Under the pieces are notes generated by a model, which was given only the letters and a program-made list of their open reading frames with translations, was not told where the DNA came from and did no database searches. Positions 16,310 to 62,200 of a stretch of 64,000 nucleotides of DNA are shown here, piece after piece. Location: NCBI RefSeq assembly GCF_964355755.1, contig NC_092678.1:3364422-3428421 (forward strand), given 5' to 3'. Position numbers and translations under genes: made by a program. How positions within the stretch are numbered: the first letter of the stretch is position 1; each line of letters starts with the position of its first letter. Origin of the DNA: Antedon mediterranea (Eukaryota > Animalia > Echinodermata).

Positions 16310-18095
16310 TATTTAGAATACAAAGATCTACAGACTTTTAAAAAACCAAAACGTTTATAAACTTTAAAAAAAAAAGAAAAAAAAAAAGAATACAAACAAA
16401 ACAAAAACCACCTCTTCTCCAAGAGCCGTACATCCTCATGCTTAAGTGTTGTTTTGGTTGTTCTGCCAACTAAGATGACAAACCAAAAAGGTCAATTTGA
16501 TTTTACTATGAAGTACTCCAACAATTTGACATGAAAATACCCACAGAAATTGGATACTAACCACCAGACTATGCATGTAGAGTAGACTCTACCATTGCTA
16601 GAGTGCGCCTACCGATGTTAAAGTGCGCCTACCGATGTTAGAGCACGCCTACCAATGTTAGAGCAAGTCTACTGAAGAGTGTGAGCCTATGGAAGAGTGC
16701 GTGCCTACGGAAGAGTGCGTGCCTACGGAAGAGTGCGTGCCTACGGAAGAGTGCGTGCCTACGGAAGAGTGCGTGCCTACGGAAGAGTGCGAGCCTACGG
16801 AAGAGTGCGAGCCTACGGAAGAGTGCGTGCCTACGGAAGAGTGCGTGCCTACGGAAGAATGCGTGCCTACCGAAGAGTGCGATCCTACCGAAGAGTGCGA
16901 TCCTACCAAAGAGTGCGATCCAACCATAGAGGACATGCCTACATTAGAGTGCGAGCCTACCGAAGAGTACGAGCCTACATCTGCTGAAGAAGCTGCTAAG
17001 GGAAGTACAAGCCTACAGCTGCTTCAGAAGTACAAGCCAACCGCAGCTGAGAAGTACGAGCCTACAGCTGCTACAGAAGTACCAGCCTACATAGTACCAG
17101 CCTATCACTGCTAAAGAGTGCGAGCCTAGAGCTGCTAAAGAGCGCAAGCCTACAGCTGCTAAAGAGTACAAGCCTACACCTGCTATTAATTGCGAGCCTA
17201 CAGCTGTTAAAGAGTGGGAGCCTACAGCTGCTAAAGAGTGCGAGCCTAACGCTATTAAGAATGTGAGCCTAACGCTATTAAGAATGCGAACTAACTCTAT
17301 TAAGAATGCGAGCCTAACGCTATTATGAATGCGAGCCTACTGCTATTAAAGAGTGCAAGCCTAACGCTAATGAGAGTGCGAGTCTAACACTAGTAAGAAT
17401 GCGAGCCTACGGCTATTAAGAGAGCGAACCTAACTCTAGTAAGAGTGCGAGCCTAACGCTATTATGAGTGCGAGCCTACAACTGCTAAAGTACAAGCCTA
17501 CAGCTGCTAAAGAGTGCGAGCCTATACAGCTGCTAAAGAGTGCGAGCCTAACGCTATTAAGAATGCGAACTAACTCTATTAAGAATGCGAGTCTAACGCT
17601 ATTAAGAATGCGAGCCTACTGCTATTAAAGAGTGCAAGCCTAACTCTAGTAAGAGTGCGAGCCTAATGCTTAACGCTATTATGAGTGCGAGCCTAACGCT
17701 ACCAAGAGTGCTAGCCTAACGCTATTAAGAGTGTGAAGTAGATCCCCTATAACATCAGTAGACAAACGCTAACACCAGTAGACAAACGCTAACACCAGTA
17801 GACGAACTTTAACAATGGTAGAGTCTACTCTACAAGCATTTGTCCAGTGGTTAATAACCAATTTCCATAGGTAATTCCATGTCAAATCATTGGAGAACTC
17901 CAAAGTCTAACCAAATTGGCCTTTTCGGTTTGCCTCTTAGTGGGCAGAACAACCAAAACAAAACAAAAAGCATGGGGATGTACAGGAGTCGGAGAGGAGG
18001 TAGTTTTACAAAGTACAAACAAGCAAACAAAACGTTTATAAACGTTTTGGATTTTTAAAAGTCTGTAGAGCTTATAACATAAAATTCTAAATAAA
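16310..18095. mobile_element. Foldback-like structure: ~290-bp imperfect inverted repeats enclosing a ~1.15-kb minisatellite
   Basis: 16310-16600 (..ctacagacttttaaaaaaccaaaacgtttataaac...gtagagtagactctaccattg) is the reverse complement of 17812-18095 (caatggtagagtctactctac...gtttataaacgttttggatttttaaaagtctgtag). Confidence 0.7.
16600..17740. repeat. Minisatellite grading from 18-bp (gaagagtgcgtgcctacg) to 21-24-bp (gagtgcgagcctacagctgctaaa / gagtgcgagcctaacgctattaa) units
   Basis: Tandem units read directly; they explain the low-complexity ORFs 16658..17114 in several frames. Confidence 0.95.
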
Positions 18096-25667: not shown

Positions 25668-28600
25668 TTACCAATATGGTGAATACCTAACTGGTGGCCG
25701 ACTTATTCTTCCCGATCGAGTTCTGTACACGCCAGCTGCAACAGCAGGCACGGCCGCCACATCCGGCACCGGAGCAACGTCCGGCACAGGCACCACTACA
25801 GCCACATCCGGCACCACTACCGGAACAGCCGGAGCAGCAGGCACGGCCGCTGCCGCAGCCGCAGGCCCACCATCATCGGCTCTTGGATTGGGGATGCCTA
25901 GCATATCAAAATGCCCACCTGCCACGCACATCTGATGCCAATTCGCTGCTGCCCTCTGTCTTTCCGTCTCTGCATTGTAAGGTGGCAAATTAGGAGGTGG
26001 GCGAAACGCACATTCAGACGATGAACAAGTAAGTGATGATGAAGGTGAAGTGGTGCATTGTCGTGGACATTTTCGTCGCTGAGGCAGTGAATGATGTTGT
26101 GGCGGTGAATGCTGTTGTCTTGGTGGGGAATGTTGTAGTCTGCGTAATCTAATGAGGCGTTCACGTTCTTCACGTTGTCGTTGTTGTCTCGTGCGTCTGA
26201 ACTGTATTCTGTCTGGTGGTGTTTGTGGTCTGGGTGGTGAATGATGTTGTGGTCGTGGTGGTGAATGATGCTGTGGTCTTCGTCTGCGTGGTGGTCGTGG
26301 TTGTGGTGGTGGTGGTATAGGCACACGTAGTGGGGAGCGATTAAAACCTCTTGCAGTTCGGCCATAAGGATGAAACCGTCGACATTCTCGTTGTCGAAAT
26401 ACTACTTCCTCATCTATCCGGGCAACTCTACCGTAGGGACGGTAAACTCCCTCACATAAAAAGTTATGTGCCTCATTTAACAATCTGTTAAAAACAGAAA
26501 CAAAATATAATAATAAATGAGTGAAACAAATTAAACTTTAATCAATATGGTCCATTATATGAAATTGGTCCAGATTCTATTAACGTGTGTTACATATCAA
26601 TATCCTATCAAATTGAAAGTCGGAGAAACAGTCTCTGTAAATTTTTCAAAAACACATTTTCCTAAATATTGAATATATTTTTTTATGCAAATCACAAATA
26701 ATAAATGTACCTCCAAATCACCTTATTTGTTAGTTTAAACCCTATAGCGCAACCTATAATGATGACCAGTGATTTTGTGGAAGATCCAGGAATTTTAAAA
26801 AAAATATGTGGTGGGCGGGGTGGAGACTAAAAATGGTAAAATAAAGTGGGTGGAGATGATGAATCCACACCTGGTCAACTTTTTTAGGTGAAAGTTCAAG
26901 GTCATAACGAAAACAAAAATATCGTTATCCGTGTACGCGTGAAACTTTCCAAAAACACATTTTCTTATCAATTTTGAAAAATATCAACACTTGCGCAATG
27001 AAAATTTATATATATCTTTTTTAAATAAATGAAATGTTTCAAGAGATCTTGCCAGGAATATGTGATCAAAATTAAATTGTGTAAAGCTCTGTGTACCATT
27101 TTTGTCAAACTAGTGATATATGCCCAAATATGGTAGTGATATGACACCATCATGAAATAGGTTGTTCAAACAACAACAAAATTATAATTTGTTGAATTTA
27201 CATACAATTCAATTTATACACTACAGGACTCTTAATCAATTTTTTGGGGGGGTTTAATGGGATGTATGTTTTTTTTAGGTTTGCAGAGTTTAACATTTAT
27301 TTTTAACCAAAAAAATGATGTTTTACCCCAAAAATAGGTTTTTAAAAGAACAAAAAAACTACATGATTTTATTGCTTTAATTGGTTTTCTGTTTTTTTTT
27401 TCGGTTTGATCGGTTAAACAATTATTTATACCAAAAAAACGATGTTTTACCCCAAAAAATAGGTTGTTACTTCACAGTCAATAATTTGTTGAATTCATAT
27501 ACAATTCAATTCATACAGTACAGGATGTAATTGCTTTTATTTTGTTTTCATGGGACGTCTGTGTTTTTTAGGTTTGCAGAGTTTAATAATTATTTTTCAC
27601 CAAAACTAGGTTGTTAAAACAAAAAAAAAATTATAATTTATTGAATTTACATACAATTCAATTCATACACTACTAGTATTTAATTACTTTTAATTACTTT
27701 TTTATGACCTTCATAAACTTCAAGTTACTTCTTTTATGTTTGAATATGTTACTGGTTTACTACCAAAGTCTGTTTCAATGTTATTTTCAAATCGTTTATT
27801 AGATCATACCTATAACATAAGAAATCCACATAAATTGTATGTTCCATTTGTTAAACTTAGAAAAAGCCAGTTTTTTATTACTTATTTAGGACCAACGTAT
27901 TGGAATAATCTAGATTCAACTGCCATCAATCATTTATATACTGTAAATTCATTTAGAAAGCATATAAAAATCCTTTATTTATCTTGTTACCAAACCTACT
28001 AAATATGTTGCGCACTGTATAATTTATTTAAATTCTATGCGTTGTATTTGTATATTTATACGGTACCGTTCTTATTTTTGTTTGAATTATTATTATTTTA
28101 GGGGTCAATGTGAGACAAGTTCTACTTCTAATTTTGATCCCTAAGATGGTCTTATATTAATTGTTTATGATTGTTTATTGTAATATTGTTTGTTATATAT
28201 TGTGACCATCTTAAATAAATGTATTATTGAATATTGAATTGGTTTTCATGGGATGCCTATGTGTTTTTGAGGTTTACAGAGTTTAACAATTATTTTAAAG
28301 AAAAAAAATGATGTTTTACCTCAAAAATAGGTTTTTAAAAGAACAAAAAAACTACATGATTTTATTGCTTTAATTGGTTTTCTGGGTTTTTTTTAGGTTT
28401 GATCGGTTAAACAATTATTTATACCAAAAAAATGATGTTTTACCCCAAAAAATAGGTTGTTACTTCACAGTCAATAATTTGTTGAATTCATATACAATTC
28501 AATTCATACAGTACAGGATGTAATTGCTTTTATTTTGTTTTCATGGGACGTCTGTGTTTTTTAGGTTTGCAGAGTTTAATAATTATTTTTCACCAAAACT

Positions 28601-48916: not shown

Positions 48917-49040
48917 TTATACAGAGAGAGCATAATGTATATTCATCATTCCATTCACAAATCAAATGTAACCAAAATAATGAATGAATATTAAATTTAT
49001 ATGTATTTTAAAATTTTATATTATTTTTTTTTATATAGAT

Positions 49041-49511
49041 ATGAAGATATCCAATGCCCATCTTCAACCATTATCTACCACCATACGTTTTATCGCATAC
49101 GGAGTTCATGGCTTTCTTGACGAAATCGTTTTTACAGCATTATGGCAACTAGTGTTTGAATCATTTGACCCTCGTTTAATTGGCTACACATCGTTGTATT
49201 CATTCATAATTTACGGAACAGGTAGTTTTATAATTGAACGTATATATCTTCGCCTACAAGAAAAAGACGTTGCGTGCATTGTACGGGTGTTTATATACAC
49301 ACTGATAGCATACGCTGTGGAATTAAGCTCCGGTTTAGTTTTAAGACAATTTGATGCATGTCCATGGGATTATAGTGACCGGTCAATGAACTTTATGGGA
49401 CTTATAACGCTGACATATGCCCCTGGATGGGCGCTTCTGGGCTACTGGCAAGAAGTATTTTCTGGATTTTTATTAAGTTTACGACAACCTGTGAAGATGA
49501 AGCAGAAATGA
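49041..49511 (+). CDS. TMEM229A: TMEM229-family membrane protein (TMEM229A-like), 156 aa, single coding exon
   Basis: RFIAYGVHGFLDEIVFTA, GYTSLYSFIIYG, ACPWDYS and NFMGLITLTYAPGW. The acceptor ttttatatag lies at 49038, just before the ATG at 49041; a likely UTR exon donor is at ~48600. Confidence 0.88.
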   Translation: MKISNAHLQPLSTTIRFIAYGVHGFLDEIVFTALWQLVFESFDPRLIGYTSLYSFIIYGTGSFIIERIYLRLQEKDVACIVRVFIYTLIAYAVELSSGLVLRQFDACPWDYSDRSMNFMGLITLTYAPGWALLGYWQEVFSGFLLSLRQPVKMKQK

Positions 49512-50387
49512 TGAAGTTTAAAATTCACTATCATAAAGAAATGTCATTCTAACATATTCAAATTTATTAGAAAGCAATAAATATTATTAAATAATATTTT
49601 TAAAATGCATTGTTGTTGTTTATCAAAGAACCATGTCCATGTTCTACTGCAGTTACTGCAGTAATCTCATGATGTTTCTGAAATAAAATGATTTTATTTT
49701 GTTTCAATGTAAAAGTTTATGAGGCAGTCACTGCATTAAACATAAAAATCTAGTTACTGCAGAAACTGCAGTAGATTATTGACATGGTCTCTAAGGTAGT
49801 TAAATAATATATAAAAGGAATGCAATATTTTAAACCTACAACTAAATATACATTTAAACATTGACAATAAGTATACTGTTTCAATTAAATATTTCAATTG
49901 ATAATACCTGAATAACAAAACTGAAAACCTAAAATACATTTAACTACACTACTATGCTATCAGTACATCTTAACTTAACTTAACCATTCAGAACCTATGT
50001 TGCAATTACACACACTTTGTTTATAAAAATACATAATTAATTGCTCTATATACCTAACACATCATTATTTTACCTACTTTTGTTTACAATTTATGGAATA
50101 TTACATAGTTTTTGCTGCATAAATTATGTTTTTCATTAAATAAATTAACACATTGCATACTACACTAATCTGCATATAAGTACAACAGCCACTTAGTTAA
50201 AAATAAAATAGATTCTTTCCCAACCAAATACCAAATTATTTTCTGCTATTACCTATAAACAATTAATTAATATAAAACGATTAAATATATTAGCACTCTA
50301 CAATATACTAAACTGTGTAAATATATTTGGCAAGGAAATTTATGCCTCCTTTATTATATGTTAAAAATTAAAATATCTGTGTTACGG

Positions 50388-50668
50388 CAAATCCCTTTAC
50401 AACATGAAGGGGAAATCCCATTACGGTACCTCATTAAGCAGAAATCCCATTATACCTCATTAACCAGAAATCCCATTACAAAATGAAGGAGAAATCCCAT
50501 TACAAAATAAAGGGGAAATCCAATTACAACATGAAGGGGGATGTCCAAATAGATTATAAAGGGATACAACATGGATGAGGGAAAAACCCATTACAACATC
50601 AAAGAGAAACCTATTGTATCGCTAAAGTAAACCCCATTATATCATCATTGAAAAAGGGAAACCCCCTC
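50388..50668. repeat. Degenerate ~25-bp tandem repeat in the dehydrogenase 3' UTR
   Basis: Recurring aaatcccattacaa(c/a)atgaagg(g/a)g-like units. Confidence 0.7.
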
Positions 50669-50669
50669 A

Positions 50670-53600
50670 TTAAATCAAGGCTTTTAAGTGCCATTCATTA
50701 TCCACTAAAGACTTGATAATTTGCTTGCTTCTGTTTGGCCAAATTGGATGAAGTTCACGACTCAATTTATCTGCAATTTCATTTGCTGCCTCTACAGGAG
50801 TGATATTGTCATCTTCAGCTTTCTTTAAAATCTTGTTAGTAATGTTGAATATCTGTGAATATATATAATACATTTATTTATTGAATTGCACTATATCTAA
50901 GAGTTGAACATGTTCACTGGCAGGGCCAAAGACTGGTCTCCCAGAGGGGGCAGTTATGATCAGTGGCTGTGATGTACTAAGTACACTGGGATAACCCTAC
51001 TTGTCCCAAACGATGTACTAGGTTCTTTAAAGTACACATGAGCTAGATGTGTACACTCATGGACTTACGTTTATAGTCCGAAAAGACTCGTTCTACCTAC
51101 CACCAGAACCATGGATCGAGTGAGCTTTGAACCCTTGGCGATGTTATGGCTACGTAATTACAGTTCCACTGTCTTAACCGCTGAGCCATTCACTCGCTCT
51201 TAAGGGTCTTTCACACCTGTTCCGGCACGGTTCCGGTCCGGCGCCCAATCGAACGTCAATGTTTCGTTTTTACGCGGCTAAGCGCATATCGATTGGCGCA
51301 TAGCCGTGTGGAGAGTCGTGAAAACGAAACATTGATGTTCGATTCGCCGGACCGGAACCGTGCCGGAACAGGTGTGAAAGACCCTTTAGGGAGTTTCTTG
51401 GTTAACCATTGTAAAATTTACGACTAAAATAGATTTTTTTAAAAACATAGAAAGCTAATACCATTGTTTTGAAGGTGGATGTTACATATTTTCACATTAA
51501 GGCATATTAGTTCACCAATATTTAAAATGTAAACAACCATTGAAATTATGTATACCATTATCTAACCCCAAACTACCGTACTCACCGAATTCTCCCATTC
51601 CTTGTTAAAATGACGAGTAATAGCTGGATCGTCCGGTAGTCTTCCGTAAACCTCATTTGCGCAATTTACAATACCCTGGAAAAAGTAATAATAAATATTA
51701 TCCTATATGCAGTGTGGTGACATCACACAATAACTACCTTTTAAAATAAGTTCCACATTATTATTAGGCATCATGTTTTAAATAAGCGTCTTATAATTAT
51801 TAGTACTGCATATAAATAAATGTAGTTTTGTAATTTGATCAATCACAATTGATAGATTATTTGATTGATTTGGTTATTTGCAAAAGGGCTACGTCCTTTG
51901 TTGTATCTCTGTTGGGAGCCAAGCTTATAAAAAGAGGCTTTATCAAAATAAGTGCTCCATTGTATCGGTGGTACTTATAAAGTGTTGATGAAATAAATAT
52001 ACATATAGTATATATTTACCATTCTATTAGCTAGAAAGTCAACAATGTAAGAGATGCCTCTTTCCTTCAGCAACTCGTTATCTGCTGGGCATCCCAGCTG
52101 GTTGTTGGCTGCACCGCATACAATCTTAGCATTTATCATAGGAATCGTATCTGCATTTAAAACCTGTGAATAAATAACTTTGTTCAAGTAATCTAGAAAC
52201 AGTGGCATAACGGCTTAATGGCTAAACCCAGAGACTCTCAGCAGTGTCCAGAAGAAAAAACAGGAATTAAAATATGTCAATAAAGGCTAAAAACGTCCAA
52301 GGCCTCCAGCGTTGGAGGGCCACTTAGGGTTCCTAAACCAGAAGCCTCAGGTCTCTACATTACGCCACTGTATAGAGGACCTCTTAATATCGGTTCTTTT
52401 TAATAAAGAATCTGCACAGTTTATCCTTTTTAAAGAACGAGTAAACTAGAAGGGCACATATATACAGAAAGATTTTTAACTTAACCCTGGGACCGCTGTT
52501 GTTTTTAACTTACGTTTCCTAGAGCACAAGGAGAGAATATATCACACGGATAACCTGCTACCGAATTGTCATCAATCTCAACTTTCTCAACTTGTAAAAT
52601 ATCTTTATACTGTAAATGAAACAAAATGTCATAGATTTAATACGATATGATATTATTTATTGTCATTCAAAGGTAAAAATGAAATGAATGAAATTTATTT
52701 TGGTTGAATTAACATACAATTAGACAAATGAATACAATATATAAAGCTTCGTAACCAGTGGGAAAGAGACCCTACAAACTATTAATACATGAATTGAATT
52801 ATAAAGAAATGATTGTTGGCAGCGTTTAGTGTTTGATACCAAATATGGTAGTGATATGCCCAAATATGGTAGTAATATGACATCATCATGTCTATATATC
52901 GGCACATCACATTTTTTTGTCATATAAAATTTAATAGTGTAGACAAGGCTTTATGCGAGTAAGAAAAATGGGGGATGAAAAACACCTCCAAGACTATCCG
53001 AAGACTTGGGAAGTCTGTAATAAAACCTGCTGTCGAAATGAATATAGCATTTGAGAGCTGGTTACCTTTGGATAGAACCGGTTTCTCATGTCCGTTACTC
53101 GTATCTGATGACAATCTGTCACGTAGATGTGCGATACGCCTTTTTGCAGCAGCTCTTCTACTATCACAGTTGCTAGGAAACAAGTAAACAGTGGATTAAA
53201 TCAATTATCATTAAATTATTTTTTTGCTTTAAATTACATTTAAAATGGTATATTCAACAAAAATGTGAAGAAAAAAATTGTTTAGGGGGACAATATATCT
53301 TTAAGGAATGTCTGTAGAATATCATAGATCACAGGTAAGACTGTGTGTAACTTTACACAGATGACTGTCTTACCAACATTACCGGCTCCTTGGATTGCAA
53401 TACGTTTCCCTACCAATGTACCCATGTTAAGGTAGTCCAAGGCTCCTTCCATTGCACAAACAACACCTACAAATGAAGAACACAGCATACATGAAACAGT
53501 ATTATAAATTATAAATTTGTTAGAAACTCATAGTGTTCTGTAAACCTAAATATAGGGTGTATTGCTGACCAAACTTAATGCGGGAATATTAACTGTACTC

Positions 53601-56600
53601 ACCTTTTCCCGTTGCGATTGAGGGATTGCCGGATCCACCCTTGACTTCTGATATACATGTTGTATAGCGTGTGAACATGTGCACATTGTCCAAGTCAGAC
53701 ACATTTAAGCCGACGTCCTCCGCAGCAACTAAAACAATATTCAGAAATTATATAGAAATATTAATATTTTGTAGTTGGATATCTGAAAAAATGATGTTTT
53801 ATGAGATGATTGTTTCTCATAATAGTACTATATAGTACTGTAGTGGAGCTGTAGCTTGGTGGTTAACGTGCTTGCCTTCCAATCCCAAGGTTCAGGGTTC
53901 AATCCTGACCTAGAGCCAGGGTTCAATTCTGATCTAGTTCCAGGATTGTAACTCACAACTCTTTCAACTCCACTCCCTAAGTCTCTAATAAGCACGATAA
54001 ATTATATAATAGTTTATCCATCCTGTAATTGGCGAGTTTGTGCTCGCTGTAGGATGCGTAGGAAATAAAACAGTTACTATATTCAATTCAAATGGTCCCC
54101 TTCCATCATTCACCACACAAAGGTTTAAATGCAGAAAATACTACACATTTGGTTGCAACTTTCTTATTTATAAAACATGGCATTAAAAATGATTACTGAT
54201 AATTTTTTGTGCATACATTTTTTTGCAACACAATGCATGCATTTACAAAACTTTTTTTAGAATAACAAACCAATGAATCAGTGTTTTCAAAGTTATCAAT
54301 CATCATTATCATATTGTTGAACCAAAAGTGTGTGCAATATTAATATATTAAAACATTGAAAACTGACATGCAAGTGGCAGTGTGCAGATTAAAAAACATT
54401 GTGTTATTCCTTTTATATACTACACCCTCCCCCCTTTTTAAAAAATTTAAATTAGAGACAAAATGCTGAACTTTATAAAGCTAACAAAGCAGCAAACATA
54501 CCAATGCAACCATTCAGAGAAGAGAAAAAGCAGCCCAAGTCATAGAAAAGTTGCGTACGAAACTCGGGCTGTCGATGATGCTTATCAGGTGGTTCAGGAA
54601 CAAGTCCTATACCGCCACCATACCTCAAAAAATGCAGAATTAGAGTACACATATTAATCAGTGCAAACAAATAAACATAAAATGTACAGCTTTAGCATGT
54701 GATAGAGAGCAGATGGAATATGTTATTAAACTATGTCTATCTGCACTATCAAACTAGTTTGACAAAAAAAGTGTGATGTGCCCAAAAAAGGTAGTGATAT
54801 ATCCAAATATGGTAGTGATATGACATCATCATGTCCATAGGCACATCACATTTTTTTGCTATATAAAGTTTGACAGTGTAGACAGAGCTTAAGGTTATTT
54901 TTATAATAATAGTAGAAGAATAAATTACAGTAACCCAAAGGACAATAAGAAATATTTTCTAGGAACATATAAAAAAGTCCATTTGGTATGTAAACCTACA
55001 TTTATGGAGATTATGATGTAATTAGGATGATCAATTGTTGTTTATATAATTATGACATTATATTTATGTTATGCAACGAAATGTCTTTATAACATATAGT
55101 ATCCCTTAAAAACCACCCAACATGCATTTTTAAGAGCTAAATCCTTGTTATTGTAATATTATTTTAATAAGACAACCACTGTGTTTCGTAAAGGTCACTA
55201 AATTAGGAATACCAGTAGGTGTATAATAATAGAAAGTTGAAGGCTATGTTAATAGACCAGATGGCGTACACATGCACCAAATTGATATTCTAGGCTGTAA
55301 AATTTGCATCAAGTCAAAGATACAGTACTTAAAATTATGAATGAGATTAAAACGTAGAATATTAAATATACTGTATTAAATAAGAGTTTAAAGGCTTCAG
55401 TTGAATAATCTGGAATAAATTATTAAATTTGATAAAGATTTTTACCATAGAATTGGCCACTAAACAAAATAATGACTGATTTCACTTAATAATAGTTCTA
55501 TTAGTTTTACGTGATCTTTTAATTAAATAAATCGACTGTGAAAGGTCCAGAAAAACAGTTGAAATTTATATACAACTAGTATTATTTGGTCGTGTTCTTT
55601 CTTCTTTTAGTTATGGGTCATTACATGAATACACAATTGTATGATGTATTGATCCCATTGTCACAAATCAATTTGTTACTAATATTAATACAACATTTCT
55701 GAATAAATATTTAATTTGTATCATATGTATTATTTATTATTAGAGCACCATAATTCTGGGAGCATATAATATTAATAGAAAGAATTAGTAGAGCAGTATA
55801 AAAAACAAAATTAAACAAAAAAATACAAACATGAAAATTAATAATATCTATGAGAAAGTAACAAAAAAGAAAGAATGAAATTAAAATTGAAGGAGGGTAA
55901 CTCTACCATAACAGCCATTGAGAGAGGAGAGAAACTCTCCATAATCATAGAACAAAGAAGTACGAAATTCTGGGTCCTTGTGGTTGTCTGATGGTGGCTC
56001 CTGGATAACGCCCTTGCCGCCACCGGCCCTGCGGAACAGAACGATGCTAATAAATGGTGCCAAATCACAAGAAAAGAACACTTGCAATGCAAATTAGATT
56101 AGATATTTAAAACTACGATGAAAATTATATTTTAATAATATTATAAGCAGTAATGTGGTAAAAAGTAATATTATTTGAATAAAATAAAAGGTACTTTATT
56201 TCAATGTAATCATGATATTACTTGTTTAATCATTTTTATAATTATTAGTATCTTAAATTGGTAACTGTATATATATAGCCTTAGTATTACCTTCATATGA
56301 ATAATTATGGGCTCAAGAGAGAATATTCTAGACAAATTTGTTTGATACTTTTTGCATGTCACTGGAATTACAAGTGCGGTGTTATCGCAAGAATTTGTTA
56401 TGTATTTATGTACGTAAACTTTTAGTATTAACAGTTATGAACAATCTAGAGTTATTCTTTACCATAAGCCAGCAAGGGCCGACTTGACTCCCATACCCTG
56501 TCCAAGGCGTAGACCATCTCGTAGGTATGCTTCCATGTCCGCGTAATCCCACAAGCGTATACCACCGCACTAGGTAAAAATAAAATAGATTATTATATTA

Positions 56601-57319
56601 TATTTTTATTAAAACAAAAGTTATATTTAAAAAAAAATCTGAAATTTGAAAAGAGGCATTATCTTAATTTTCTCCTATAATATCTCAATGAGCTTGCTTC
56701 TACTGAAAAAAAAAACCACCAAACTTATTAATTAATTGTAAAATGATGCAAATAACCAAAAACAATTAAAATTTACCGCCTGTCCCCGGTTTGTTCGCCA
56801 TATAAATGCACCAAGAAGACAATTTGTTCGCTTTCCTAACTGCATAAAAATGCCTTCATGTTCGTCAAAATCTACTTTGTCTTTTAACAAAAACAATTTT
56901 AATTCTTCAAGAAGTCCTGGATGCGAAACTTTCACCGCCTTTTCTTCGGGATCAAATACTAAATACAGACGTCTGATATTTTCAGCTTTTAAATAGTCAA
57001 TGAAATTCTGAGGAGATAACTTCAATAAAGACGTTTTGGAAGAGGCTGACCCTGTATTAGCAACTAGAGGGGTTGTTAAGAATGTCCGATGGCTGGATAG
57101 AGGCCAGGCCGCAGCACTACCACCACGAAGAGCTCCACGACCGGTTTCATCCTGCCGGTTTTTGTGGAGGAACACTGACTGCCGCTTGTTGAATCGATGG
57201 CCTTCGTGGTTATAATTAAAAGAGTTGCATGCAATATTACGAACGTTTAGATTCAATAATGTTGGTGAAATATAGCGTTTAGCAGAATATCTGAAATTAT
57301 TAAGTGATAATGCCATCAT
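50670..57319 (-). CDS. Leucine-dehydrogenase-like Glu/Leu/Phe/Val dehydrogenase with a probable mitochondrial presequence, 536 aa; complement(join(50670..50852,51586..51675,52020..52163,52514..52609,53066..53172,53374..53466,53603..53728,55907..56028 [or 54502..54623],56463..56569,56777..57319))
   Basis: GGIRLWDY..DGLRLGQGMGVKSALAGLW-AGGGKGVI, SLNGCYVAAEDVG, GGSGNPSIATGKGV, IAIQGAGNVA (Rossmann fold), CDIFSPCALG and IVCGAANNQL. All introns are GT-AG; 1611 nt in frame with one copy of exon 3. Confidence 0.93.
50925..51198 (-). mobile_element. tRNA-derived SINE with a Deu/Nin-like domain (second copy)
   Basis: Colinear with 33650-33926. A box TGGCTCAGCGG and B box GGTTCAAAGC on the minus strand. 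Confidence 0.7.
51203..51385. mobile_element. Palindromic MITE with TTA TSD (PIF/Harbinger-like)
   Basis: tta|agggtctttcacacctgttccggcacggttccggtccggcg...cgccggaccggaaccgtgccggaacaggtgtgaaagaccct|tta. Confidence 0.88.
53845..54070 (+). mobile_element. tRNA-derived SINE (tRNA-Gly-like head)
   Basis: A box TAGCTTGGTGG, gccttccaa anticodon-arm remnant, B box GGTTCAATCC, no acceptor stem pairing, and a tail with aataaa. Confidence 0.6.
54502..54623 (-). CDS. Alternative duplicated exon 3b of the dehydrogenase (YGGGIGLVPEPP...SSLNGCI)
   Basis: 122 nt, the same length and phase as exon 3a (55907..56028), with 25/40 aa identical. Acceptor ttttttgag (unusual GAG), donor gtatgt, no stop. Confidence 0.8.
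54730..54889. mobile_element. Tourist-like MITE family A copy
   Basis: cactatcaaactagtttgacaaaaaaagtgtgatgtgccc...agtgtagacagagct|taa. Confidence 0.8.
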
Positions 57320-57329
57320 TTTGGTTTAC

Positions 57330-57620
57330 TTTCACTCTCTGAAGTTAGGCCTAACCTACCGATCCTCTCGCGAGACGACGAACCAGCAATATTTATAAAG
57401 TGCGCCCTCTCTGGTGGACATAACTAAAAACTAGTCTTTGAGCTTGACGATACCTACTAATTACTTAGTACGTCTGGTGGTAAAAGACTACGCGGAAGTA
57501 ACTTTAAGAAAACTTTACGGTCGAATAAGTTTTGTAAATAAACTTCGATCGAGAAAATCAACAATTGTATACTGGTGGTACGCCTTAGTTTGACCAGGTT
57601 TGACAGATGTTTAAGGTAAG
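57330..57620. promoter_or_regulatory. Probable bidirectional promoter between the dehydrogenase (-) and plexin (+)
   Basis: Palindrome TCTCGCGAGA at 57366-57375, GCGCCCTCT at 57402 and CGGAAGT at ~57493. Dehydrogenase ATG at 57319; plus-strand consensus donor AAG|GTAAGT at 57616. Confidence 0.5.
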
Positions 57621-57762
57621 TATAAGAATATAAAGTCTAAATAATAACTTAACAGACGAATGCTATATGTAAGTGTATATTTAAACTTAAAAAAATTAAT
57701 TCATAGACCAAGATATTCATATACAGACCGACGATTTTCGGTCAAGAATTGAGGTAGGCTAG

Positions 57763-58770
57763 GGTAGCTGAATACAGATCACTCCGGCCGCGCTTCACTC
57801 CGGCCGCGCTTCAATCCGGCCGCGATTCATCCGGCCGCAACTATGGAGCGCCCATAGTCTTCAACCGAGACACGTTTTTTGTAGAGAATCAAAATAAACA
57901 TTTGTAATCATATTCAGTATATTTTTTCTCTTTCAGGATCACAACAACATCGCAAGTGTTTTAAATTAGGTCTAATGCTAAAACAAAATAATTTATGTGT
58001 TTTATCCAATGTAATAGGCTAGTATATTAATTGTAATGTAATTAATTATGTAATTTATTGCAATGTACCCTATATGTCATATTATTTTTATCATATATAA
58101 ATTAAAATATAAAATCATTGTAAATTGGACTGTACAAAAATGATATATTAATTCTTGATACAATTCCAGGTAACATTAATTAGACGGATATTTGATTATT
58201 TGAAATAAATTAATTAATATTGTAAATATTGTTATTAACTATAACAAACATCAATAGTAATTGATTATTTGAAATAAATTAATTAATATTTTACATATTG
58301 TTATTAATTATAATTAGTAAGTATGGGTACTGGCAAGATAAAGTGTTATAAAAATAAGGGTTTTAACTAATTTTTAATGTTAATAAATGTAAAGCTATAA
58401 AAATAAATGTACATAGAAAGAAATTAAATATTGTTATTCAAGCATTAATTAGACGGGTATTTGATTATTATTTTATTATTGAATTTAATTAAGTTAAGTT
58501 TAGTTTGAAAGAAAAAGCAGTTCCAACTTCTTTGATTGTTATTGTTAATGAAAAAAGTAAAATTGTTGCTAATAAATATTCAACTAGTTCCATTTAAATT
58601 CACCAAGAATTTGTTATAACACTGAACAGTATAGAAAACGTAGATATGGGCGCTCCATACTAACGGCCCCTTTGCACAGGAAGTCGAATTGAATAGCGGC
58701 CGGAGTGCATAACATCGCGCTAAACTGATACGGCGGCCGGAGTGAAGCGCGGCCGGAGTGATCGGCTACC
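57763..58770. mobile_element. 1008-bp non-autonomous DNA transposon with modular TIRs and a 6-bp TSD
   Basis: ggctag|ggtagc..gatcactccggccgcgcttcactccggccgc ... gcggccggagtgaagcgcggccggagtgatcggctacc|ggctag. Inner IR tatggagcgcccata/tatgggcgctccata; AT-rich non-coding interior. Confidence 0.85.
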
Positions 58771-59278
58771 GGCTAGCTTCACCATCATGTGCGACTCCTT
58801 CCTCCTCCATCACTACTAGTCCTAGTGGCACATTACCAGGGAGGTATAAAAATATTTTTATACCTCCCTGCTATTACCACTGTACTACAAAAAATACAAT
58901 TCTGTGTGTAGGCTAGGTTGAGTAATACAATTTAGAATGCCCTCGTTTAACGTTTGACTTAAAAAATTAGTAAAATTCTATTTTATTATGAAAAATTCAA
59001 CATCACTTTTTAAAATTATTTTTAAATGCTCGTTCTACGTTATTACTGTTAATGAAAAATTATTAGGGTTATTATGAATGTTGTTGCCAAGGTTACAAAA
59101 ACTTTCTGCCAGCTACACTTCTGTTAAATGAATTAAATATCCAACAAAGTATTTCTTAACTGTTTTGTTGTCTCCAATTTTCATAAAAATTTCACAATTC
59201 TATTTAAATCTATTTGTTTTCAGAATATATCATGTGCCAAAGATTAAAGAGGATACATTTTATTTGATTAAAGACAGA

Positions 59279-62200
59279 ATGGATCTATTAAGAACCACTT
59301 GTTTATATAAGCTAAGCTTTGCGTTACTAGTGTTATGGTTGCAGACACTATCCATACAAAGTGAGACTTTATCAGCCTACCTTTTAAATCAGTTCACGCC
59401 ATCCTCTCCAGTCAGTTTGCAACATATCGCAATCCACAATCGCACACGAGATGTCTACGTTGCCGCAAACAACAAGGTGTTCAGATTGTCAGATGATCTT
59501 ACGTTATTAAATAGCAATTCGACTTGTGATGAATCGGATGACTGCGTTAATGTCAACAAGGTTCTCGTTATCGATTATGAAAACGATAGATTGATAACAT
59601 GTGGAGGGGGTAACATGGGAAAATGTGAAGCATGCAACTTAATTGATTTTCAATATTTGTTTACATCTGCCGAGCAAGTCGTTGGTACCGAAGATTTATC
59701 AGCTGTGGGATTTATAGCTCCGGCCCATTCCGGTAGCGCATTATACACAGCGTCGCGCGATGATGGTGATGAAACATTCTCTTTTATTTCACGAAGGGAG
59801 TTATCCGATCTTACACCTGTAACACCAAGAAATGAAAATAGAATGCAAGTAGCAAGTGGCTATTATTTAAATATGTTACAATATGTCTCTGGTTTTTCTT
59901 ATGATGGATTCAGTTATTTCGTATCAAATAGACAAGATTCATTGATCACAGATGTTACATCTAGACTCAGTCGTGTTTGTGAAAGTGAAACAAACCTGTA
60001 TACATTTTCAGAAGTTCATTTGAAATGCAATGGATATGAATATGTCCGAAGTGTGTCTGTTGGTACCATAGGAAAACACCTTTCAGAATCATTAGGCCTT
60101 CAAGTTGGAGATAATGTTCTATTTGGAATTTTTTCAAGGAGCTCTACTAGTTTAGAATCTGCTCTTTGTATTTTCAATTGGATTGATATTAACCAAGCAT
60201 TTCGAAATGCCTTAAAAGGTTGCATTATACAGCCAAAGAATGATGATAATAAGTTACTGTATGCTAGTGGTTCTTTATGTACAGGTGGTGTAAGTATTTT
60301 TATTTTAAAGTTTTGAAATAACACAGAAAAATTAATATTAAAACAGTTGACTATGGTTTCCTGTTGGTTACTTAAGAAATATAAAAGTAGAGTTCCTGTG
60401 ATCACACACAAAAATATTATCTTTTCTGATACAGTATTAAAATAAATTTGTTTTTTTATCAGGTTGAATCTTTGAGTGATGCTCAAATAGACCGTTACCA
60501 ATGCGATTATGATTCTACATTTTATAAATACTCACAAGGCCTCATATCAGAAGCAGCTGCAGCTGATCCTGTATTACAGTTACCAAATCACAATCTCACA
60601 GCCATCACTACAGTAGTGGAACAGAACCACACGATAGCATTTCTAGGAACTGCCAGTGGAGAATTGCTAAAGGTAAGAACAAATGATGGTACGAAAAATA
60701 TTGGCAACATCAAGGATGATAATAAATAAATATGCCAATCAAAATGAAATATTTCTAAATTAACAAGCTTATATTTTTAATGAACACGTACAGGCACAGA
60801 TTGTTGACACTGCTACATCACGTGTATATGAAACCATTCCCTTGGATGATAAACCTGTGAAGCCTGACATAGTCATCAGCGACAACCTTGCGCATATTAC
60901 AGTACTGACGGAACAAACGGTGAGAGTAAAGAATTAAACTGCATTGCTAATGAACATAAAAGGTAACGAACAAGTTACAAGGAATTGTTTATTGTATATA
61001 GGCGTACAGTACTGGCGAACTCAAAAGTAGCAGAAACAGTAAGGAAAGAACTTAGATTACGAACAAACAAAGGAAGAAATTATTAGTTAAGATTTTGAAA
61101 AAACTCAAGAATTAAGATGGCCTAATAAATTTTCTCAACTAATATACGTTACTCCACAGCACTATAAAAATCTTTAGCCTTGTACTATGTTTGACCTTAG
61201 TACTGAATATTTATTTGTTATTTTAGGTTTTAAAGTTACGTGTGGAGAATTGTTCTCAGTATACTACATGCGATGAGTGCATTGGACCAAATTCCGGCAG
61301 CGATGGTGACCCGTATTGCGGATGGTGTACTCTGGAAAAAAAGTAATAATTTTAGCACATAAGCTCATATTAACAATTTTGGATTGTGGAAACAAGATGG
61401 GGAGAATGATATTTTGTTGCAAATCAGAATAATTTTATGATCTCTTTCATAAAGTAGACAAGGGCGGCCCAATCAAAGCTTCACCCTCCACCCCTCTCCC
61501 CAGTAATAAAAACTATTTACATATTAACAATTTTGGATTGTGGAAACAAGATGAGGAGGATGATATTTTGTTGCAAATCAGAATAGTTTCATGATCTCTT
61601 TCATAAAGTAGACAAGGGCGGCCCAATCAAAGCTTCACCCTCCACCCCTCTCCCCAGTAATAAAAACTATTTAAATTGATATATTCATTTTCTTTACAAT
61701 TATTTTCAGGTGTAGTCGCCAACAAGATTGCGCAACAACATGGCTTCCATACAACAACGCTGTTTGTGCTGAAATCTTATCCGTAGAGCCACCTGCTCTT
61801 CTTGACACACAAGCTAGCCAAACTGTAAGTGTCCAAAATACTACAAAGAATGCATACATGCATTAATGGAAAATATTGTTAAGCCTAATATTAATAAATC
61901 ATGAACAATAAAGTGGTATCATATAGAATTTTTAATTTTTCGTAAGTCCAACCAGAGACTTGGAAAGTCTGTATTTTAACAACACAATGTACAGTATGCT
62001 TTCCAGTGCAATTGGATAAACCAATCTGTTGTATTATTTTTATCTTGATATTGTTTGACTAATCATTACATTATTCGTGTTCATGTTTGATTTTAGATAA
62101 CTTTAGATATACAGGAACTTCCTCCACTTACTGATGGCTCAAGTTATAGATGTGATTTTGACAAGGGCGCGTTTGAGTCGGAACTCGTAGTTGGGACGAC

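Follow-up and report, generated by a model that had tools for sequence, protein, structure and literature searches.

Can one gene supply, through the choice of a single exon, both an amino-acid dehydrogenase and a twin that lacks its catalytic lysine? This question is raised by a 64,000-nt stretch of the Antedon mediterranea genome (contig NC_092678.1, positions 3,364,422 to 3,428,421; hereafter the window, to whose numbering all coordinates refer). A dehydrogenase gene lies on its minus strand, with ten coding exons that run from 57319 to 50670, and the third of these is present in two versions of 122 nt each, exon 3a (55907..56028) and exon 3b (54502..54623). Splicing with 3a yields a protein of 536 amino acids identical to the A. 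mediterranea RefSeq "leucine dehydrogenase-like" protein (P0001), and splicing with 3b yields another open frame of 536 codons with a single terminal stop.

The coding part of exon 1, from the ATG (56777..57319), contains an N-terminal extension that is basic and disordered, followed by the start of domain I. Within the first 40 residues there are four Arg or Lys versus one Asp or Glu, and the pLDDT is below 50 over residues 1–94 of the Anneissia model. From its sequence the extension is likely a mitochondrial presequence. A 15-nt in-frame deletion at 57120 within this extension is carried by one contig of run X5. Exon 2 (56463..56569, 107 nt) encodes a GG-x-R loop and K210, the equivalent of the carboxylate-binding K68 of leucine dehydrogenase (LeuDH), and exon 4 (53603..53728, 126 nt) encodes the AED motif with D262 (LeuDH D115); both exons are common to the two isoforms. 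Exon 5 (53374..53466) contributes the GAGNV part of the NAD-binding motif and is followed by exons 6 (53066..53172), 7 (52514..52609), 8 (52020..52163) and 9 (51586..51675). The coding part of exon 10 reaches the stop codon (50670..50852), and an RNA-like contig (record 2) extends to 49699, covering the 3' UTR.

The intron between 3a and 3b contains a MITE-like element (54736..54886, no strand assigned) with 47-nt inverted arms and many genomic copies, located 112 nt upstream of the 3b acceptor. The same element also occurs at 52839-52960 and at about ten other places in the window, with very high contig depth in the DNA runs. Two further high-copy repeats are found in introns of the gene, at about 53850-54050 (with a 24-nt tandem pair) and at 51045-51370. 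By tblastn within the window, no other exon of the gene has a second copy, and none of exon 2 or exon 4 lies near 3b; Rfam gave no match in 49000-60000. On the plus strand, convergent with the dehydrogenase gene, a 175-aa ORF (48984-49511) matches Pfam ABC_trans_CmpB (E 5e-9) and is presumably TMEM229-like; X1 contigs of the two genes stop at 49636 and 49699, 63 nt from each other. A long plus-strand exon of a Sema-domain protein (59132-60316, E 2.5e-6), which we take to be plexin or MET-like, lies in divergent orientation to the dehydrogenase gene. Elsewhere in the window are an ORF of tandem EECVPT-like repeats (16662-17114, plus strand) and a 289-aa low-complexity ORF rich in Pro, Arg and His (25668-26537, minus strand).

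The initial annotation described 3a and 3b as homologous exons of equal length and phase, both open and both flanked by AG/GT sites, and the coordinates, lengths and phases proved exact. Exon 3a is bordered by CAG|G and TG|GTAGAG and exon 3b by GAG|G and TG|GTATGT. The two share 25 of 40 amino acids and 73 of 122 nucleotides, with different codons at 15 of the 25 shared residues, and identity at codon positions 1, 2 and 3 is 27, 31 and 13 of 40. Synonymous sites are saturated (pS 0.81) while pN is 0.29 (Fisher p 1.4e-6). The flanking introns appear unrelated, with local alignment scores of 47 and 61 against shuffle means of 46 and 44 (maxima 71 and 78). Since the introns align no better than shuffled sequence and saturated pS is paired with low pN, the pair is an old duplication under selection at the protein level, as had been proposed.

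The acceptor side of 3b contains a candidate branch point, CTAAT (A at -17), pyrimidines at 13 of 17 positions and a 64-nt AG-free zone. Its GAG is unique among the ten acceptors of the gene. The 3b segment is identical at 38 of 40 amino acids to the Anneissia X2 isoform, with the acceptor AG at exactly the homologous position. Allelic differences were seen at 54620, which is synonymous and in the first 3b codon (one contig of run X4), and at 54696, which abolishes an upstream out-of-frame ATG (run X1).

A mutually exclusive layout is borne out by a tandem pair of homologous exons that match in phase and length, either of which alone keeps the frame. As also predicted, joining both exons leads to an early stop at codon 263 and skipping both to one at codon 228. 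Steric exclusion of 3a and 3b is ruled out by the 1283-nt intron between them, with branch-point candidates adjoining 3b, and so it is probably frameshift and decay that keep the two exons exclusive. No convincing docking or selector pairing was found; the inverted repeats in 53600-56600 are those of the MITE and AT-rich pairs.

What the choice of exon changes depends on the family to which the protein belongs. P0001 scores 39.4 and 88.8 bits against Pfam PF02812 and PF00208, and P0002 scores 32.9 and 87.6, above curated cut-offs of 25.3 and 23.4; in these and in the fold tests, the b form was represented by the Anneissia b isoform as a stand-in. The nearest structures in the PDB are bacterial LeuDH and phenylalanine dehydrogenase (PheDH), with a sequence E of 4e-60 and fold TM of 0.84-0.90. 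The Anneissia b isoform is modeled as a whole two-domain LeuDH/PheDH fold with TM 0.85 to 3vpx, the AlphaFold pLDDT is 96-98 over residues 211-260, and residues 219-226 are placed in a β-strand. However, the alignment behind this model consists mostly of K-type rows, and the model is thus weak evidence on b-specific changes.

Alignment to the PDB matches places K210, K222 and D262 at LeuDH K68, K80 and D115, which are named as catalytic positions in the available text of PMC2723916. Of these three, exon 3 holds only K222, preceded by a GGG loop. In the 3a version (P0001 residues 218-257) the motif is GGGK, whereas in the 3b version it is GGGI, with Ile at position 222 in place of the catalytic Lys, so the loss of this residue noted in the initial annotation holds when aligned to LeuDH K80. 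The annotation was also correct that the GGGK lysine is catalytic; its role as a Schiff-base lysine did not stand. In the consulted parts of PMC12018205 and PMC6033044, K80 is instead a general base, activating the water molecule that attacks the imine. K80 mutants retain about 1.5% of wild-type deamination (PMC12018205, from the portion available), and K80A keeps leucine binding, with a Km of 3.7 versus 5.1 mM (PMC6033044, likewise).

Isoform a also keeps the equivalents of LeuDH G41/G42, G77/G78 and G290 (G183/G184, G219/G220 and G447) and the NAD motif at G326/G328. Leucine-pocket positions L40, A113, V291 and V294 align with C182, A260, I448 and C451, which are aliphatic in character, not identical. 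Based on this residue inventory, the 3a form is likely an active enzyme of the leucine-dehydrogenase type. The other pocket residues (K210, D262, G183/G184, R186, A260 and the NAD motif) are all encoded in exons shared by both isoforms.

The absence of exon 3b from related species, which would have counted against the initial annotation, is not what was found: protein records of seven other species contain full-length isoforms without the Lys. Among ten isoform pairs checked, seven differ only within residues 218-257. These alternate K with M in the crinoid Anneissia japonica (X2, full length and 95% identical to 3b), with I in the brittle star Amphiura filiformis (in which the a segment is 2 aa longer), with V in the sea stars Patiria miniata, Acanthaster planci, Asterias amurensis and A. 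rubens, and with T in the acorn worm Ptychodera flava, a hemichordate. Three other pairs are of different kinds: an N-terminal truncation in Tubulanus, an 11-aa deletion in Centruroides and a 4-aa insertion in Branchiostoma lanceolatum. The b isoforms of the seven species are database gene models, known here from protein records alone. NCBI builds such transcript variants from transcript evidence.

The column itself is highly conserved. K222 is present in 137 of 147 homologues; three have gaps, and the remaining seven are precisely these b isoforms. Among more distant representatives that cover the column, 128 of 131 have Lys, and one of the exceptions is a Priapulus paralogue that also lacks K210 and R186. 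With the Antedon window included, b is found in 8 of the 12 ambulacrarian species of the set; Saccoglossus, Glandiceps, Apostichopus and Holothuria have a records and no b record in this set. No sea urchin is among the matches listed (120 of 1128), the Antedon database record (a protein cluster of one) has the a form only, and a search for short ORFs resembling the Amphiura b segment gave no candidate.

Between the two crinoids, b is 95% identical, a is 90% and the rest of the protein is 92%, and among sea stars b is 78-92% identical. Across classes b is 42-65% identical versus 65-75% for a, and b diverges faster in most class pairs. The eight b exons all agree at 14 of 40 positions (including GGG, EP, R, D-G-F and LNGC), compared to 22 for the a exons. 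In a tree of exon 3 segments (36 rows by 40 columns), one branch parts all eight a from all eight b with support of 91/75 and in 200 of 200 bootstrap trees; the amphioxus exons group with a. A b clade was not recovered in this 40-column tree, yet it was not rejected (p-AU 0.34). When exon 3 is left out, the ambulacrarian sequences form one orthologous group (100/98). The sequences are consistent with a simplest history of a single duplication and a single loss of Lys before echinoderms and hemichordates parted, after which I, M, V and T replaced one another at this position.

The explanation we put forward, on which our judgement is evenly balanced, is a splice switch between a likely active a enzyme and a nearly inactive b twin that acts as a ligand-binding regulatory subunit in a shared oligomer. 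Splicing would pick either 3a, giving the enzyme with Lys222, or 3b, giving its Lys-less twin of the same length. In b the base would be gone and imine hydrolysis nearly lost, and the protein is predicted to be nearly inactive. Binding of amino acid and NAD(H) should nevertheless persist with low turnover, because the carboxylate, amine and NAD contacts are in shared exons and K80A still binds leucine. LeuDH-type enzymes are oligomeric (PMC2723916, in the part available), and since the two isoforms differ only within a 40-residue segment, one would by default expect mixed oligomers, in which b would co-assemble with a. The a:b ratio set by splicing could then tune amino-acid oxidation, either by dilution or through allosteric sensing by b in the manner of Thermus GdhA. 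Nonsense-mediated decay would dispose of transcripts with both exons or neither, and b would be a minor, slowly spliced form in Antedon owing to its weak GAG acceptor.

A different role for b would be that of an enzyme with other chemistry, one that keeps hydride transfer but has lost imine hydrolysis, and that reduces preformed cyclic imines (pyrroline- or piperideine-2-carboxylate) or converts 2-oxo acids to hydroxy acids. D262, K210 and the NAD motif are retained in b. The equivalent Lys in PheDH holds the keto carbon 5.1 Å from NADH and prevents phenyllactate formation (PMC6033044, in the text available), and catalytic-site switches between mutually exclusive exons might yield different functions according to the accessible part of Lam et al. 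(PMC7954323). The replacement is always M, I, V or T in the eight species, which is suggestive of a shaped pocket, but these are equally the residues that a β-strand tolerates, and 219-226 lie in a strand in the model. In addition, no acid catalyst takes the place of the lysine, b exons of different classes are just 42-65% identical in this segment, and the sea-star b isoforms also change G223. Altered chemistry is the chief rival of the splice switch and seems unlikely to us.

Alternatively, b may be inactive and work apart from a, in cells that make b only, as a sensor of NAD(H) or amino acids or as a scaffold for another partner. Crinoids on the one hand and sea stars on the other each conserve their b-specific residues at surface positions 229-236, although this loop varies between classes. 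There is also precedent for a Lys-less homologue of this type, since one of alanine dehydrogenase regulates a CoA transferase (bioRxiv 10.1101/2025.10.31.685773, as far as its available text goes). Against a separate life for b, its identity to a outside the 40 residues would make co-assembly the default where both are made, and we judge this possibility decidedly unlikely.

Whole-gene homologues with degenerate active sites in protostomes fit a sensor that works alone. These fall in a long-branched group (80/93) of the exon-3-free tree. In Priapulus caudatus (P0149, P0157) the paralogue without K210, K222 and R186 has a VGGGSS motif that resembles the b exons; bivalves P0084, P0109 and P0150 and Owenia P0033 lack D262, and arachnids P0049, P0139 and P0148 have M for E261. 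Degenerate sites in several whole genes make a non-catalytic use of this protein plausible in animals, including the use as a regulatory subunit proposed here.

Both of these alternatives, like the splice switch itself, have b made as a full-length protein, and here the RNA evidence from Antedon is divided. Run X1 was classed as RNA by guess, and it behaved as spliced RNA, with contigs that end at exon borders; the match of the exon 1 contig (record 8), for example, ends at 56777. The X1 contig over 3b (record 4) matches as far as 54502, beyond which come 28 more letters that reproduce the first nucleotides of exon 4 (53728-53701). Three DNA-like runs from one sample are continuous across 54502. 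Because the X1 contig jumps to exon 4 where the DNA-like runs read through, the 3b donor is used. On the other side, record 4 spans 54502-54764 unbroken, so that the GAG acceptor is unspliced and at least 141 nt of intron are included, up to an end inside the MITE. No joint of exon 2 to 54623 was found among the X1 contigs, which come from one run and drop rare joints. Of the two splicing events by which exon 3b could be recognized, the one out of 54502 was therefore found and the one into 54623 was not.

This read-through counts against a simple cassette reading, and exon 3b could instead end an alternative first exon in or near the MITE, or belong to an intron-retaining, unproductive transcript that lowers output. 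An in-frame ATG at 54652 is present in the intron sequence that runs through the GAG acceptor (54624..54652, minus strand), with an in-frame stop at 54694-54692, and is covered by record 4; a protein started there would have no exons 1 and 2. Record 4 is spliced on its 3' side only, record 8 seems to run from exon 1 through 2 and 3a to 4 without a branch (its 257 further letters equal 107+122+28, that is exon 2, 3a and 28 nt of exon 4, by arithmetic), and Antedon has no recorded form other than a. However, a protein without exons 1 and 2 would lack half of domain I, the near-complete match of 3b to a full-length Anneissia b isoform includes the acceptor position, and the missing joint is that of a single run in which rare joints drop out. 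X1 contigs also cover other stretches of the 3a–3b intron and of the exon 2–3a intron, as would be seen for a slowly spliced intermediate, and none covers 54062-54498. We read the 3b contig as such an intermediate at a weak acceptor, and regard a non-cassette role for 3b in this species as improbable. A last reading, that b exons are independently decayed duplications or annotation artefacts without function, draws on the short, low-support tree, the four species without a b record and the status of b models as predictions, but is very improbable given that eight species of two phyla keep the frame, the length and 14 invariant residues, that saturated synonymous sites go with low pN and crinoid b exons are 95% conserved, and that echinoderm and hemichordate a exons cluster together, apart from their own b. 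The reading of the locus as an active enzyme and a pseudo-enzyme is supported in part, by the exon duplication, the exclusive layout and the loss of Lys; the exon 2–3b junction was not found in the Antedon X1 run.

Several known systems resemble parts of the splice switch. Like bacterial LeuDH and PheDH (6acf, 1leh, 3vpx, 1c1d; PF02812 and PF00208), Antedon a keeps the equivalents of K68, K80 and D115 and the pocket glycines. It differs in being an intron-rich animal gene with a long N-terminal extension and C, I and C at pocket positions 40, 291 and 294, and in having a b form without the K80 equivalent. The hetero-hexameric glutamate dehydrogenase GdhA/GdhB of Thermus thermophilus (3aoe) belongs to the same superfamily and pairs an enzyme with a homologous subunit that is inactive, as b putatively is. 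In the portion of PMC9570180 available, the catalytically inactive GdhA subunit regulates activation by leucine. By analogy b may work like GdhA, yet it is no GdhA, as it does not come from a separate paralogous gene: the Thermus subunits are encoded by two bacterial genes, whereas Antedon b is a product of the same gene as a through one swap of a 40-aa exon. The alanine dehydrogenase-like NAD+ sensor ADLP of Thermus has its catalytic Lys variously replaced across its clade, keeps NAD(H) binding and is regulatory, but it is from another enzyme family, is a separate gene and regulates an unrelated enzyme (bioRxiv 10.1101/2025.10.31.685773, in the text available).

Mutually exclusive exons in enzymes such as PKM1/PKM2, PFKP, OGDH 4a/4b and fly CG42249 likewise arose by tandem duplication, share a phase and have one copy chosen, as far as the accessible parts of these sources describe them. 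Computational work has listed nine events affecting catalytic residues (Lam et al. 2021, PMC7954323, in its available text). PKM and PFKP remain enzymes whose allostery or oligomeric state is switched, whereas 3b removes the general base. CG42249, according to the available text, concerns a single fly gene and was identified by computation; the Lys-less dehydrogenase exon is retained across two phyla. The initial annotation knew of no description of such a switch, and none was found in open-licence PMC and bioRxiv texts, supplements aside; the same search found no study of the animal leucine-dehydrogenase-like family. Each ingredient is known; their combination in a single gene, where the choice of one exon takes away the general base and that exon has been retained in two phyla, did not turn up in these texts.

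Taken more broadly, the switch between an enzyme and a Lys-less subunit for sensing or altered chemistry may have been kept in echinoderms and hemichordates as a single-gene counterpart of GdhA/GdhB, with the a:b ratio setting the mixed oligomer, while some protostomes obtained Lys-less or Asp-less forms through whole genes. Our confidence in this wider proposal falls a little short of even. On that proposal, the two phyla would have used the switch for over 500 million years. In enzymes, most known cases of mutually exclusive exons adjust allostery or oligomeric state, and 3b removes the catalytic base with the rest of the pocket intact. The a and b isoforms, which are present in RefSeq as unremarked X1/X2 models, would be a clean natural pair of enzyme and predicted pseudoenzyme only 15-20 residues apart, and bear on the conservation of dead enzymes and on the control of metabolism by splicing.
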